Source: Vicinamibacterales bacterium
Lineage (GTDB): Bacteria > Acidobacteriota > Vicinamibacteria > Vicinamibacterales > UBA8438
Assembly: GCA_965207595.1 (NCBI GenBank)
Contig: CBDBMW010000012.1
Coordinates: 1,039,466-1,103,465 of the forward strand
Direction: 5' to 3'
Length of the DNA: 64,000 bases
Shown here: one piece after another, positions 10,214 through 49,675 of the stretch
How positions within the stretch are numbered: the first letter of the stretch is position 1
Layout of the letters: each line of letters opens with the position of its first letter
Notes under the pieces: generated by a model
The model's database searches: none
Seen by the model: the letters and a program-made list of their open reading frames with translations, nothing else
What the model was told of the DNA's origin: nothing
Made by a program: the position numbers and the translations under genes

Positions 10214-11008
10214 ATGACGAACCCCATCGCCGCCGGCGACCCGGTGGTCGCGGTCGACGGCCTGACGTTCAGCTACGGCAGCGGCGAGGTGCTGCACGGC
10301 ATCTCGTTCGCGGTGCGGCCGGGCGAGGTGGTCGGGCTGCTGGGCCCGAACGGCGCCGGGAAGAGCACGACCATCAGGATCCTGACCGGCATACTGGCGC
10401 CGGGCGGCGGGTCGGTGCGGGTGGCCGGCTGCGCGATGCCCGAGGAGGCGACCGCGGCGAAGAAACGCCTCGGCTACGTGCCGGAGGCGGCGGGGCTCTT
10501 CGAGAGCCTCACGGCAGAGGAATACCTCCAGCTGGTCGGCCGCCTGCAGGAGGTGCCCGAGGACCGGCTGCAGGCGCGCATCGACCGCTTCCTGACGCAG
10601 TTCGGCCTCGCCGAGGACCGGGTCGCGTCGCTCGACACCTACTCCAAGGGAATGCGGCAGAAGGTGCTGCTGAGCGCGGCGCTGCTCCACAACCCGGATC
10701 TCCTGCTGCTCGACGAGCCGCTCTCGGGCCTGGACGTGAACGCCGGCATCATGGTGCGCGATCTCATCGCCGCCCTGGCCGCCGAAGGCAAGGCCGTCCT
10801 CTACAGCTCGCACGTCCTCGACGTCGTCGAGCGCGTCTGCGACCGCGCGCTGATCCTCCACGAGGGGCAGGTGATCGCGGACGGCTCGCTCGACGCGCTC
10901 CGGGCGTCGGCCGAGCGTGGCAGCCTCGAGGACGTCTTCCGGCAGTTGACCGGCACCGAGGGGACGGCGAGCGGGGCGGCCGAGATCGTGGCGGGCCTCC
11001 GGCCGTGA
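10214..11008 (+). CDS. ABC transporter ATP-binding protein (ABC-2/drug-exporter type)
   Basis: GPNGAGKST, YSKGMRQK, LLLDEPLSGLD, YSSH. Confidence 0.93.
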   Translation: MTNPIAAGDPVVAVDGLTFSYGSGEVLHGISFAVRPGEVVGLLGPNGAGKSTTIRILTGILAPGGGSVRVAGCAMPEEATAAKKRLGYVPEAAGLFESLTAEEYLQLVGRLQEVPEDRLQARIDRFLTQFGLAEDRVASLDTYSKGMRQKVLLSAALLHNPDLLLLDEPLSGLDVNAGIMVRDLIAALAAEGKAVLYSSHVLDVVERVCDRALILHEGQVIADGSLDALRASAERGSLEDVFRQLTGTEGTASGAAEIVAGLRP

Positions 11009-11632
11009 ACGCCGTCGCCGCCTTCGGACGCCGGCTCGTCCGCGGCCCCGCGGGCGCGCGCATCCTCGCGCGGCTGGGCATCGATCCGCACCGCTACTGG
11101 CTGCTGTACGACCTGTTCGGGACGCTGGGCAGGCGACAGGAAGTGACGCTGCTCGGCTCCGACTACTCCCTGCGAAGCACGGCCCTGCTCTGGTTCCTCG
11201 TCTCCGGCCTCGGGAGCGTGGTGCTCGTCGTCGCCGGCCCCACTCCCGGCGGTTACCTGCTCCTCTTCCTGGGGCTCACCGCCTTCCTGCTCGCCGTGCA
11301 CCTGGTCGCCGAGGTGGCGGAGAACCTCGTGAACCCGGTGGCGGAGCTGACGCTGGCGCACCAGCCGATCAGCGCCGGCACCTGGTCGGCCGCGAAGCTC
11401 AGCCACCTGCTCACGGTGGTCGCCTACCTCGTCGGGGGCATCAACGCCGTGCCGGCGGTCTCCGGCACCCTGCTCGACCACGCGGGATGGGGCGGCATGC
11501 TCGCGTACCCCGCCGTGCACCTGCTCGCCGCGCTGGGAGTCGGCCTGGTGGTGGCGCTGCTCTGCTGCAGCCTGTTCGGCTGGCTGGTGCGATTCGTGCC
11601 CGTCGGCCGGCTCAAGGCGTTCGCCGCGCTAG

Positions 11633-13219
11633 GAGCCTGCGCCGCAGAACGCCCCGCGGCGTGAACTGGGTTGTCGGTCGAGAACCTGAGTGATCGTAAA
11701 GAGAGCGACGATGGCGATCGGTCGACGACGGGGATTCTCGGCCGAAGAGCGATCCGGACCGCGAAACGGGGTTCTGAGGGCTTCTGGGCCCGTCAGAGAC
11801 CGTGATGCGCGCCGATCGGTCGCTGTCGAGCGTCGTGTTACGCCGCCATCAGCACGTGGAGGCGCTTGACGTTCAGGGCCAGGCACACGAGGACCCACTC
11901 GGCCCGCACGTTCGCCAGCCCCCGGAAGCTGAAGCGCCGGAATCCCAGCACGTGCTTGATCCAGCCGTGCGGGGCCTCCGACAGCCACTTGCGCTCGGCG
12001 TAGGCCGCACGCCCCTCCGGCTTCGACAGCTTCTCGGCCATGCGATTCGTCGCGGGACACTTCTCCGGGTCGCGGGCCTCCGTCTGCTTCCCCTCCCGGC
12101 CCAGCGCCACATACCCGTCCACGCCCCGCTTCTCCAGGTCCGTCAGGTCCCGCTCGTTGCAGTACCCCGCATCGGCCAGCACCGTCTCCGGCTGCGCGTC
12201 GAACGTCTCCTGCACCGCGTCGAGCACCACCGGCAACTCACCCTGGTCGCTCGCGTTCGCCGTCACCTCCGTCGCCACCACCAACTGCCGCTCCGCGTCC
12301 ACCGCCACCTGCGCGTTGTAGCACTGCTGGTACCCCTCGCTGCTCGTCTTCATGATCGAGCTCTCCGGGTCCGTGAAGTTGCTCTGCGCCTTCTCGTCCG
12401 GCTCGCCGTACTCTCGCTTGTACGGCGGACCGCCCTTCGGGTTCCGGTCCTGGCCCGGCTGCCGCCCGCGCGCGTCGTCCGCCGCCCGAGCCGCCGCTTC
12501 CAGGCGCGCCTTCGCTTCCCGGATCGCCTCCAGGCGCGCCTCCCGCCGACGCAACTCCGTCGGCAGGTCATCGCCCCGAACCTCCGGGCCCAAGCGCGCG
12601 TCCTCGGCCTCGTCCACTGCGTCCGCTCGGCGCAACAGCGCCTCGACCTCGCTCTCCAGCCGCCGCTCCTCTTCCTGCATCCGGTCGTAGCTCATCGCCT
12701 TGCGCTTGCTCGCGTTCGCTCGCACCTTCGTCCCGTCGATCGACAGCTTCCCCAAGCGCACCAGACCCAACTCCCGGGCCAGATGGACCACCTCCACGAA
12801 CAGCGCCTGGACATCCGCCAGATGCCGACGCCGGAACTCGCACAGCGTCCGATGTTGCGGAAAGTTGCCCGCCGCCAGCACTCGGAACCCCACGTCTTCT
12901 TCCAGTTTCCGCGCGATCCGCCGCGACGAGAACACCCCCGTCGCGTACGCGTAGAGCAGAACCTTCACCATCATCCGCGGGTCATACGGTGCGTTGCGAC
13001 GGCCGTCCCCCTCGTACGGCGCGTAGAACACCGTCAGGTCCAGCCCGTCCACCAGATCGTTCACGTGATGCGCCAAGTGGCCCTCGGGCAGCCACTCCCG
13101 CACATCCGGCGGCAACAGCAGCGACTGCTCCGGCAAGTAGGGGCGGAATGTCGTCGGCATCGAGTCCTTCCCTCGTCCGCTCACCTAAATTGTCGCATCA
13201 GTTTCTGCGGCGCAGACTC
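11633..13219 (-). mobile_element. IS1182-family insertion sequence, 1587 bp
   Basis: 17-bp TIRs GAGCCTGCGCCGCAGAA (11633-11649) and, reverse-complemented, GAGTCTGCGCCGCAGAA (13203-13219); CTAG on both sides. Confidence 0.9.
11838..13160 (-). CDS. tnp: IS1182-family DDE transposase
   Basis: PYDPRMMVKVLLYAY, SSRRIARKLEED, SIDGTKVRANASK, NFTDPES, YNAQVAVD, VLADAGY, FRRFSFRGL; alternative GTG start at 13184. Confidence 0.93.
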   Translation of the reverse strand: MPTTFRPYLPEQSLLLPPDVREWLPEGHLAHHVNDLVDGLDLTVFYAPYEGDGRRNAPYDPRMMVKVLLYAYATGVFSSRRIARKLEEDVGFRVLAAGNFPQHRTLCEFRRRHLADVQALFVEVVHLARELGLVRLGKLSIDGTKVRANASKRKAMSYDRMQEEERRLESEVEALLRRADAVDEAEDARLGPEVRGDDLPTELRRREARLEAIREAKARLEAAARAADDARGRQPGQDRNPKGGPPYKREYGEPDEKAQSNFTDPESSIMKTSSEGYQQCYNAQVAVDAERQLVVATEVTANASDQGELPVVLDAVQETFDAQPETVLADAGYCNERDLTDLEKRGVDGYVALGREGKQTEARDPEKCPATNRMAEKLSKPEGRAAYAERKWLSEAPHGWIKHVLGFRRFSFRGLANVRAEWVLVCLALNVKRLHVLMAA

Positions 13220-13328
13220 CTAGCGCCGCCAACCCGTCGCACGCTCCGGGTCGGCCCCAGCCCCCACCGTCCCAGGAGCTTGCGCCGCGGCACGCACTCC
13301 GTTGACGTTCTGCGGCGCAAGCTCCTAG
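13220..13328 (+). mobile_element. 105-bp in-frame MITE-like insertion: 52-bp arm plus a 49-bp mini-element with IS1182-type TIRs, bounded by CTAG
   Basis: GAGCTTGCGCCGC (13276) ... TTCTGCGGCGCAAGCTC (13324); CTAG at 13220 and 13325; 35 sense codons; related to 48587-48670. Confidence 0.75.
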
Positions 13329-13381
13329 CGCAGGCGCTCCCCCTCGTCGCCTTCTGGGGATTCACCTTCGCTCGCAACCCG

Positions 13382-13450
13382 CCGGGCCAGGAGCCCGGAA
13401 CCGGTCAGGAGCCCGGAGCCGGGCAAGAGTCCGGAGCCGGTCAGGAGCCC
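13382..13450 (+). repeat. 18-bp coding tandem repeat, about 4 copies (xGQEPG)
   Basis: PGQEPG TGQEPG AGQESG AGQEP. Confidence 0.85.
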
Positions 13451-14648
13451 GCTGCGGCGGCAACGTCGCTGGAGATGCCGGCCGCGCTTCAGGCCGCCGT
13501 GGAGGCGATGCCGGGCGGGCTCCGCGGGACTCTTGCGGCGGCCGGGGCGATCGTCGCGGTGGGGGCGGTCGGCTTCGGCCTCCGGGCGCTGTCGAGCCCC
13601 CACCTGCTGCGAGTCGCCGGCTCGATGCGCTCCGGCGTCCGCACGCCCCGGCGGCGGAGACGAAGGTTGCCGGGAGCGGGTCCGTGGGTGGCCCGGCTCG
13701 CGGGCGGTCCGGCGGCCCGCGCCGGGTACGGGTACGTCCGCGCCCTGCTCTTCCGCGACTGGCAGTTCCTGCGCAACACGGGCATGAACGCCGCCGGAAT
13801 GCTCGCGCTGATCGTCGTCCTGCCGGTCGTCGGCCGCGAGGTCTCCCCCTTCCGGCCCGGCGACGACTTCGCCCTGGCGCACATGCTGCCCCACGTGCTG
13901 GGCCTGGGCACGATCTTCGCGTGCCGCTTCCTGGCGTTCGGCAACGACCACAAGGGGGCCTGGACCTTCTCGGCCGCGCCCGAGTCGTCCCTGCGCCCGT
14001 TCGCGGCCGGGGTCTACGCGGCGCTCTGGGTCGTGCTGGTGGCCGCGCCGCATCTGGCCCTGCTGCTGCTCTTCGGCTGGTACTGGGGCTTGCCCGATGC
14101 CGCCGGTTTCGTCGTGTTCAGCGCCGCCGTCGCCTCCCTCTACCTGGCCGGGGCCCTGCGGCTGACCGACGGGCTCCCCTTCGGCCGCCCGTCGCCCGCG
14201 ACGCGCACGAGCGTGCCGATCTGGCTCGGGATTGCCGTCTTCATCGTGGCGGCCATCGCGGTCGGGATGCAGGTCCTGCTCTTCCGCGCCGCCGTCGCCG
14301 TTGCTGCCGTCACGCTCCTCGTCGCCGCGGCCGCCCACCTCTTGGCTCGCGTGACGCTCGGCGGCCTCGCCTCCCGCATCGCATCGAGCCTCCACCACGC
14401 GCCGTCGGCATCGATGTTCCGCTCCGTGGGCGAGCACGAGGACTGAGGGCCCGGCGACGGCGGGCGGAGAGCGCCCCGAGTGCCCGGAGCCGCCCCTCCT
14501 CCGTGGGCGGCCACCGCGGCGGTGAGGCCCCCCCCGCGTGCCCCGAATGCCCCGCGTGCCCTGGCGGGCGATCGGGTGAGGCACGGAACCGCCGCCGGCC
14601 CGCGACCGTCATCACGCAAGAACCGGTCGGGACGGGGAGGGCAGCGTG

Positions 14649-48322: not shown

Positions 48323-49675
48323 TCAGGCCGTCCGCGCGAGCTGCCGAGCGCGACCGGCGACCTGCATCGCGAATGCTCCCAGGGCGTCCCCATCCAGCCC
48401 GGAGGCGGCAAGCTCGCCCGCGGTTCCTTCGGCCCGCTCGATCGCGAGTGCAGCCAGCGCCGCGACCCGCCGCCGCACGAACGGCGGCGCCAGCCCGACG
48501 CTCTTCGCGAACCGATCCCAGTCCCCGGGACGCAGCTCCCGCAGCGTGGCGCGCCCGGCGACCCGCATCGCGAGGTTGGGGGCCAGGGGTCTGCGCCGTG
48601 GAACGGCGCGGACTCCTGAAGGATTGGGTTGGGCGCCGAGCGGAGCCGCAGGCGACGAACGGCGGGCGAAGTCGGGATAGGCGACGGTCGAGAGCAGGTC
48701 GTAGAGCGGAGCGAGCTCCGTGCCCCCTTCGCGGTGGAGCAGGCTGTAGTTCTTGGCGTGGGCATCGGCGTTCCCGATGAGCACCTGCACGATGGCCGCG
48801 TCGAGCAGCTTGAGCACCTCGACGGCCGGACGCGGGCACGCGCGCCGGACCAGATCGAAGCACTGGCGGAACGCCGGACCGCCGTCGGCGGCGTACTTGC
48901 GGCTGGAGGGCACCCGGAGCGCCTGGCAGAAGTCCTCCTGGTGCAGGCGGCGCACGGAACCGTCCGCCTCCCGCTGCCGGTCGTAGCGGGTGACGAGCAG
49001 GCAGTGCCCATCGGCCACGCGATACGCGTCCACCGGGGCCGCGTCCACCCCGAGGCTGGCGGCGAGGCGCATCGCGAACGCCTCGTTCTCGGTGGTTGCC
49101 GGGAACCGGGCGATGGGCGGCTTGAGGATATGCGTGGTCGGCTGCCCCGGCCCAGGCAGCGCGACCCGCCCGCCGACCAGGACGACGGGGAGCTTCGACT
49201 GCGCCCCGGCGAGCGACAGCCGCAGGCCGCGCGTGCCGGCCAGCATCGGCCGGGTACCGAGCTGCCCGAGCACGCCGGCCAGCTCCTGCTCGTCGAGCGC
49301 CGCCGCGGGCTGGCCGCCGGCCGGGGTCACGACCGGCGGCGGCTGCGGCGCGTCACCCTCCGGCCGCAGGGTCAGCGCACCGGCCACGTCGCCCCCCAAC
49401 CGCTCGAGCAGTGCGAACTCGTTGCCCGGCGACACGCCGAAGACCGCCGCGACCGCGTCGCGCTGCGCACCCTCGGGCAGCAGTCCTTCGAAGAAGGGCC
49501 GACACGCCCGGGCGCGGAACGGCTCCGCGCGCTTCGGCAACGAGAAGGAGAGCGCGGGCGAGGCGGGGTCGGCGAGCCAGACCGCGTCGTACGCGAACCG
49601 CATCGCGCCGTCGCGATCCACGCGCAGGGAGCCGACGAGCGCGTCCTCCCACCAGACCGCCAGCGCGCGCGTCAT
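48323..49675 (-). CDS. hipA: HipA-family kinase toxin with HipA-N domain and a 28-aa insertion
   Basis: SLAGAQSKL, THILKP, ENEAFAM, LLVTRYDR, HQEDFCQAL, IGNADAHAKNYSL, LAPLYD. Confidence 0.92.
   Translation of the reverse strand: MTRALAVWWEDALVGSLRVDRDGAMRFAYDAVWLADPASPALSFSLPKRAEPFRARACRPFFEGLLPEGAQRDAVAAVFGVSPGNEFALLERLGGDVAGALTLRPEGDAPQPPPVVTPAGGQPAAALDEQELAGVLGQLGTRPMLAGTRGLRLSLAGAQSKLPVVLVGGRVALPGPGQPTTHILKPPIARFPATTENEAFAMRLAASLGVDAAPVDAYRVADGHCLLVTRYDRQREADGSVRRLHQEDFCQALRVPSSRKYAADGGPAFRQCFDLVRRACPRPAVEVLKLLDAAIVQVLIGNADAHAKNYSLLHREGGTELAPLYDLLSTVAYPDFARRSSPAAPLGAQPNPSGVRAVPRRRPLAPNLAMRVAGRATLRELRPGDWDRFAKSVGLAPPFVRRRVAALAALAIERAEGTAGELAASGLDGDALGAFAMQVAGRARQLARTA
48587..48670 (-). 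mobile_element. 84-bp in-frame MITE-like insertion in hipA with IS1182-type terminal hairpin
   Basis: Gene sense: arm + TCAG + GAGTCCGCGCCG-TTCCA-CGGCGCAGACCC + CTGG; adds FARRSSPAAPLGAQPNPSGVRAVPRRRP between YPD and LAPNLAM. Confidence 0.72.

Follow-up and report, generated by a model that had tools for sequence, protein, structure and literature searches.

Palindromic units of the BIME/REP type are sites into which the insertion sequences (ISs) IS1397 and ISKpn1 insert. Short elements that share their ends with a resident IS are known as well. MITEs of 160 to 169 bp are paired with ISMac2, a member of the IS1182 family, in Methanosarcina acetivorans (PMC3852290), and MITEPsy1 of Pseudomonas syringae duplicates either CTAG or YTAA (PMC3189936). 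In-frame MITE fusions are "not unusual" according to a 2024 review, which also covers repeats that insert into one another (PMC10969869). In-frame intragenic MITEs include the Rickettsia palindromic elements (RPEs), QMITE1 of Coxiella, ERIC, and BOX, and the pneumococcal BOX/RUP/SPRITE clusters are made of repeats that insert into one another (PMC10969869).

Here we analyze a family of short repeats that came to attention in a window of 64,000 nucleotides (positions 1 to 64000) from a genome of the order Vicinamibacterales (13 contigs, 6.68 Mb, 71% GC). Plain coordinates refer to the window, and coordinates elsewhere in the genome carry a contig label. As in the ISMac2-paired MITEs and MITEPsy1, the units are non-coding, about 100 bp long, and dispersed in many copies, with the terminal inverted repeats (TIRs) of a resident IS, a 4-bp target duplication (CTAG), and presumed mobilization in trans. 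They differ from these MITEs in being bipartite, with a minimal TIR-TIR hairpin and an arm that carries only a truncated TIR, in reaching hundreds of copies in an acidobacterial host, and in that the scarcity of CTAG steers copies to stop codons and to one another. With RPEs, QMITE1, ERIC, and BOX they share a stop-free length divisible by three and can be read as extra peptide (in hipA and in a gene for a DUF1592-type protein). Unlike RPEs, which are frequent in open reading frames, only about 1% of the units lie in intact genes, and in-gene targets are strongly underused. Like BIMEs/REP and BOX/RUP/SPRITE, they are mosaic palindromic repeats that cluster and attract IS insertions. In contrast to those systems, repeat and IS have the same TIRs and the same target, RAYT is absent from the genome, insertions favor the CTAG at a single defined end of the repeat (that of the arm), and IS and repeat could travel together.

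We conclude that this is a new, well-populated MITE family and not a new kind of element. A preliminary description of the window had known of no such elements for IS1182, which was too strong a claim, as IS1182-derived MITEs are listed for Methanosarcina acetivorans (PMC3852290). For Vicinamibacterales, our literature search found no description of MITEs or elements of this kind. The features that merit attention are the bipartite unit, the hot spot at its arm end, the composites of IS and unit, and the occupation of stop codons.

RESULTS

The resident IS

The window contains one of five genomic copies of an IS1182-family IS, which are 100% identical over 1,595 bp and have CTAG at both sides in all five cases. 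With both flanking CTAGs included, the copy in the window occupies 11629-13223 (minus strand), with a period of 1,591 bp. The span between the outer TIR ends (11632-13221, no strand assigned) runs from the repeat at 11632-11650 (GGAGCCTGCGCCGCAGAAC) to the one at 13202-13221 (reverse complement, GGAGTCTGCGCCGCAGAAAC); the TIRs are thus 19 to 20 nt long. The transposase gene (11838-13184, minus strand) encodes 448 aa and is assigned to the IS1182 family by the equivalog model NF033551, with 368.6 bits against a cutoff of 270; IS5 models scored under their own cutoffs. No other IS1182-type transposase was found in the genome.

Related IS copies in other Vicinamibacterales genomes have CTAG on both sides at about 75 of the 78 loci where both ends were found. 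Elsewhere in the order, the related IS repeatedly abuts two more types of CTAG-ending repeat, which end in GACGTGACGGACCA-CTAG and CATAATCCGGG-CTAG (loci L024, L062, L073, L091, and L098, with L089, L093, and L102 reversed; L027, L035, L036, and L086). These repeats are probably additional CTAG-targeting elements. Tandem IS-IS pairs with one common CTAG also occur in other Vicinamibacterales genomes (L075, L077, and L080).

Anatomy of the unit beside the IS

Directly next to the IS lies a unit of the type that we call A (13220-13328), for which the minus strand is the hairpin-to-arm orientation of our profile. The preliminary description had proposed that it consists of CTAG, an arm, CCAG, a 49-bp mini-element, and CTAG, and this anatomy is exact. 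The outer boundary CTAG at the arm end (13220-13223) is common to the IS and the unit. It is followed by the arm (13224-13271, no strand assigned), the internal CCAG (13272-13275), the 49-bp hairpin (13276-13324, likewise unstranded), in which two inverted IS-type TIRs enclose a 13-nt loop, and the CTAG of the hairpin end (13325-13328). The arm had been given as 52 bp; it is present, with a length of 48 bp, and the larger figure includes a CTAG. From CTAG to CTAG the period is 105 bp, which in the frame of the surrounding permease gene yields the 35 stop-free sense codons that had been reported.

By our own count, the ends of the hairpin match the IS TIRs at 17 of 19 positions (GGAGCTTGCGCCGCAGAAC in the hairpin versus GGAGCCTGCGCCGCAGAAC and GGAGTCTGCGCCGCAGAAA in the IS). 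Over the three types of element distinguished below (A, B, and C), hairpin arms and IS TIRs differ by at most one to three mismatches over 19 nt. When folded, the units form strong hairpins (z = -4.4 to -5.0 versus shuffles). An Rfam scan of 13150-13400 at E <= 1 gave no match.

The arm holds a degenerate copy of the TIR (GGAGCGTGCGACG on the minus strand) and includes GGAGCCTGCGACG, a 12/13 match to the IS end. This TIR match aside, the best score of the A arm against the IS body is no better than that of shuffles (119 of 200 reach the same value). For the B arm, a single weak match to IS positions 981-1005, which 2 of 200 shuffles equal, was treated as chance. The arms of A and B resemble each other (score of 22 versus a shuffle mean of 14.9, reached by 15 of 500 shuffles), and each forms a second, weaker stem-loop. 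Read from the outer CTAG inward, they resemble the inner TIR (CGCCGCCAAC versus CGCCGCAGAAC; CCCGCCGTTC versus CGCCGTTC). In both A and B, the arm side ends in TIR-like sequence that lacks the outer ~7 nt, whereas each end of a C element, or of a hairpin, is a TIR. In our own reading of these alignments, the arm looks like a spacer followed by a truncated second hairpin from which the outermost ~7 nt are missing.

A family of about 250 full copies

We searched the genome with nhmmer profiles, each derived from a single copy of its unit, and found 220 A-type and 184 B-type matches. The profile search that had been suggested as a check thus returned several hundred matches, with similarity far beyond chance. 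After removal of overlaps, there are about 95 full-length A units (modal period, 105 bp) and 141 full-length B units (modal period, 84 bp, with subvariants near 102 and 123 bp). C is a classical MITE of 113 bp with 14 copies, eight of them identical. About 80 fragments consist of a hairpin only or an arm only or are decayed. A fuzzy search of the genome with the IS end, at up to 4 mismatches, gave 707 matches, only part of which are genuine. Altogether, the family comprises about 250 full copies of 84 to 113 bp without coding capacity of their own. The A unit was found in all four congeners, and it occurs in three other genera of the family at 75 to 88% identity. A non-autonomous, MITE-like family tied to the IS had been proposed, and the same TIRs, the CTAG duplication, the hundreds of copies, and the differences in presence and absence between congeners all agree with that proposal.

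Neighbors in head-to-tail arrays are 96 to 100% identical, versus 86% (A) and 71% (B) for random pairs. Because neighbors are mostly this similar and have common decayed junctions, the arrays are mostly local duplications, and we dropped them as evidence of insertion polarity. Three tandem arrays of three to four identical or nearly identical 84-bp B units have decayed junctions (CGAG/CCAG), at C12:1695800-1696133, C13:791409-791744, and C12:2469459-2469714. Their appearance is that of VNTR-type duplication in place rather than of repeated insertion.

The target is scarce

CTAG occurs 1,361 times in the genome, versus ~17,600 occurrences expected from base composition (a 13-fold depletion); for GTAC, which has an identical base composition, the count is 14,968. 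The window contains 10 CTAGs where 77 are expected, and three of these are element boundaries. All 14 C copies have CTAG on both sides. For A units, CTAG is present at the hairpin end (left) in 65 of 95, at the arm end (right) in 52 of 95, and at both ends in 42 of 95, and most of the other flanks differ from CTAG by one step, as CCAG and CTGG do. Decay has gone further at the flanks of B units, many of which, including the copy in hipA, are without CTAG flanks. Thus, either B accepts looser targets or its flanks have decayed. CCAG and CTGG predominate among decayed element flanks, as either very-short-patch-type repair or selection against CTAG would predict.

Two C elements (C13:436099-436215 and C9:65309-65425) have nearly the same whole A or B unit on both sides. 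They either landed at the junction of a tandem pair or generated a very long target duplication; ISfinder lists target duplications of up to ~60 bp for IS1182 members.

Units lie between genes and on stop codons

Gene positions are those of our own codon-usage gene finder, trained on this genome (5,336 genes, 84% of the sequence), and not of a curated annotation. Of the 241 CTAGs bound by an element, 4 are in genes, 148 are intergenic, and 89 are at stops; the 1,120 free CTAGs divide into 269, 568, and 283, respectively. In-gene CTAGs are therefore used about 14 times less than expected from their availability. Roughly 40% of the units abut a predicted stop (40/95 for A and 55/141 for B), nearly all of them at offset 0, so that the boundary CTAG supplies the TAG stop. 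Offset +15, with a TAG within the TIR of the B repeat as the stop, accounts for another 16 B units. Other offsets within 25 bp of the stop are almost empty, which serves as an internal control. In the 16 genes that appear to end in a TAG of the B repeat (GCCGTAGAAC), the stop lies 15 nt into the element and the five terminal residues are element encoded. Among the 375 genes with a C-TAG stop, 89 (about a quarter) carry an element there. B units at stops are mostly placed hairpin first (44 of 51, or 44:7; e.g., C12:2161634 and C9:296273), and A units show no bias (21:19).

We joined the flanks of ten stop-docked units and searched the four congeners with them; some sites were empty, some filled, and some filled differently. 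In congener G002, the empty site corresponding to C12:2161634 consists of a single CTAG, which is the stop of the gene. Since CTAG is so scarce at 71% GC, the available targets are mostly intergenic sites, C-TAG stops, and the CTAGs left by earlier insertions. With targets restricted in this way, units dock on stops and regenerate them, elements pile up, and few insertions are seen inside genes. Almost every copy is intergenic or coincides exactly with a TAG stop, and copies in frame within proteins are rare accidents.

An IS plus unit at the permease locus

The IS and the A unit together interrupt a gene for an ABC-2-like permease (plus strand) at a codon CTA-G; its 5' part is at 11005-11632 and its 3' part at 13325-14446. 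The two elements form a composite (11629-13328, no strand assigned) with inverted IS-type TIRs and CTAG at both sides. In congener G001, whose flanks are ~99 to 100% identical, the site is a single GTAG and both elements are absent, so that the net insert is 1,696 bp. More distant permease orthologues also lack the A unit. The identical pair of IS and A unit recurs at a second locus (C10:76141-77840), and the A units beside these two IS copies are identical over all 109 bases. They share two variants, a combination present in only 3 of the 95 A units, the third of which adjoins a C element. The pattern recurs in another Vicinamibacterales genome, where units of at least 98% identity lie on the same side of three IS copies and the DNA beyond them is unrelated. 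The orientation of the IS relative to the arm, constant in our genome (4/4), is not fixed, as arms occur on either side of the IS in other genomes.

Just downstream of the insertion site, the permease gene contains a short GQEPG-type peptide repeat (13384-13450). This repeat may account for part of the difference between the lengths of the orthologues (575, 564, and 563 codons) and the 581 codons here.

The arm end is a hot spot

An arm end is abutted by 4 of the 5 IS copies and by 10 of the 14 C copies. Intact arm-end CTAGs number only about 80 of the 1,361 CTAGs in the genome (~6 to 7%). Hairpin-end CTAGs number 95, and the only two cases of their use are at the joint between tandem units. 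The eight identical C copies adjoin A units that are mostly non-identical, which indicates independent landings. By our own arithmetic, ~10 independent landings in ~17 placements, where 7% would be expected, correspond to a p value of ~1e-8. Counted over all units, TIR-bearing neighbors lie at the arm end in 64 cases and at the hairpin end in 5, and in other genomes the flanks of the IS are arm ends in 23 cases and TIR ends in 7. The suggestion that the units serve as a landing pad for the IS fits these counts, and the proposed check for IS1182 copies next to units gave the same 4 of 5 at the arm end.

In-frame copies

The B unit in hipA (48587-48670, minus strand) is 84 bp long and adds 28 codons (FARRSSPAAPLGAQPNPSGVRAVPRRRP) in frame. 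It retains the order of parts of the A unit, with a hairpin of 29 bp. The gene itself spans 48323-49675 (minus strand), and the insert begins at residue 337, shortly past the conserved LAPLYD motif. In the orthologues (two congeners at 95% identity and four further relatives), residues 1-336 and 364-450 are encoded by contiguous DNA, and the DNA alignment shows an exact gap of 84 bp in the five orthologues that span the site. The related in-frame unit that had been described in hipA is therefore an exact insert of 84 bp and 28 codons, and the expectation that homologous proteins would lack such peptides holds for the permease and hipA orthologues alike. We conclude that the hipA copy is a genuine, recent, and tolerated in-frame insertion. 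The empty site in congeners is TTGG or TTGT and not CTAG, and the flanks here are TTCG and CTGG. Either B has a looser target or an ancestral CTA codon was present and both copies changed later.

A second in-frame B unit (C10:268732-268819) lies in a gene (C10:267643-270075) for an 811-aa DUF1592-type, cytochrome-like protein. It adds ~29 residues in a variable linker, exactly where paralogues have a gap of ~28 to 30 residues. These two are the only units with an open frame and coding signal on both sides (240-bp flanks). Looser read-through tests (60- to 150-bp flanks) produced up to 8 blocks, all of which, other than these two, proved to be upstream of or between genes. Units are thus read through in intact genes in 2 of 236 full copies (~1%); the copy in the permease is a third case, in a gene already disrupted by the IS. 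A general habit of sitting in frame inside proteins, as the preliminary description had put forward for the family, does not agree with these 2 cases among 236 full units, nor with the presence of 4 of 241 bound versus 269 of 1,120 free CTAGs in genes.

Neither the A nor the B consensus has a stop in any of the four gene contexts that CTAG allows, and the same is true of 20% and 17% of composition-matched shuffles, respectively; because the shuffles ignore the depletion of TA in this genome, this openness is less surprising than the percentages suggest.

DISCUSSION

We observed directly the anatomy of the units, their copy numbers and locations, the target, the empty sites, and the statistics of adjacency. 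These observations are best explained if the unit in the permease is a copy of a composite MITE family that derives from the resident IS1182-family transposon system and is most likely moved in trans by its transposase, a view that we hold to be probable. Mobilization by this enzyme is inferred from the common TIRs and the common target. Each unit is a hairpin of two IS terminal repeats, with a decayed CTAG as the joint to an arm of ~48 bp that contains a degenerate, truncated second TIR. Units insert at CTAG and duplicate it, as the IS and the 113-bp C element do, and insertions inside genes are rare and, in the mechanism that we propose, mostly purged by selection. Elements with TIRs strongly prefer the CTAG at the arm end as their target. 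With an IS in that place, IS and unit are bounded by two proper TIRs and could move as one piece.

Some observations weigh against this mechanism. Because the arm end lacks the outermost ~7 nt of the TIR, the mechanism does not explain how a solitary unit is cut or moved at that end. At least one member of an identical, dispersed group of B units (C12:1631433) has no TIR partner at its arm end. TIR partners are only weakly enriched among recently moved units (10/21 versus 54/215; p = 0.04).

How the unit came to lie in the permease can be read in two ways. The A unit may have inserted alone into a permease that stayed functional with 35 extra residues, and the IS may have landed later at its arm end. 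IS and C demonstrably insert with preference at arm-end CTAGs, and solitary units do insert alone, as in hipA; we nevertheless find this order of events doubtful. The congener with nearly identical flanks has neither element, the same unit, base for base, adjoins another identical IS although so few A units are of this variant, the chance of two independent landings of this kind is ~0.1% by our own arithmetic, and composites of IS and A unit recur in another genome. We therefore favor entry of the unit as a single 1.7-kb composite of IS and A unit, which probably disrupted the gene in one step, and we infer composite transposition as the route. Given such an entry, the 35 open codons result from a GC-rich sequence whose length is a multiple of three and not from adaptation. 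It is very unlikely that the family as a whole is adapted to in-frame life inside proteins in the manner of RPEs, with surviving copies that add peptides. Such adaptation would account for periods that are both multiples of three (105 and 84), for consensus sequences that stay open in four contexts where 20% and 17% of shuffles do, and for B units in frame in two intact genes, with all three intragenic copies in the same orientation and frame. However, the two intact genes stand against 236 full units, the ~14-fold underuse of in-gene CTAGs is a signature of purifying selection, the coincidence of lengths alone has a chance of 1 in 9, and the host gene of the permease copy is broken by the IS.

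Two further alternatives concern the function and the mobilizing enzyme of the units. Host-recruited 3'-end elements, such as the terminators or mRNA-stabilizing hairpins proposed for REP, would be kept by selection and would be expected exactly where some 40% of the units are found, at stops; the strong hairpins and the hairpin-first placement of B units there also speak for such a role. The choice of CTAG as a target, combined with its scarcity, however, predicts stop docking without selection. Stops make up 27% of all CTAGs and 37% of those that are element bound, A units at stops have no orientation bias, docked copies vary in presence between congeners, and no T-tract follows the hairpin. 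We consider a selected 3'-end function unlikely. Far less credible still is a REP/REPIN-type family moved by a RAYT (Y1) transposase, with a coincidental likeness to the IS ends. The units are indeed short, GC-rich, extragenic palindromes with high copy numbers that are sometimes in tandem, and ISs are known to target REPs. Yet a search for Y1_Tnp (PF01797) that was positive in 6 of 14 control genomes gave no match in this one, and the 19-nt ends of the units equal IS1182 TIRs, with a 4-bp CTAG duplication as for the IS. We rejected this model for a genome without a Y1 transposase and regard it as extremely improbable. Descent from the IS, with most likely mobilization by its transposase, remains our preferred explanation.

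Why TIR-bearing elements should prefer the arm end is a matter for interpretation. Tentatively, and with considerable doubt on our part, the arm might be an evolved decoy end, in which the truncated TIR recruits the transpososome to the adjoining CTAG; the IS would then find a harmless site, and the unit would hitchhike in the resulting composite. If this is true, MITE and autonomous partner would be in a reciprocal relationship, in which the IS gains a harmless site and the unit, otherwise immobile, gains a second functional end. In combination with the extreme depletion of CTAG, such a decoy would confine the whole system to stop codons and to its own junk DNA.

The family illustrates how an avoided 4-bp target can steer transposons, as about a quarter of the C-TAG stops are occupied and new insertions favor one end of old ones. 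In practice, the units account for breaks in short-read assemblies in the genus, can lead gene callers astray at the ends of genes, and provide polymorphic markers between close strains. They also reveal an abundant, recently active MITE/IS1182 system in the Vicinamibacterales, a widespread and little-studied lineage of soil bacteria.
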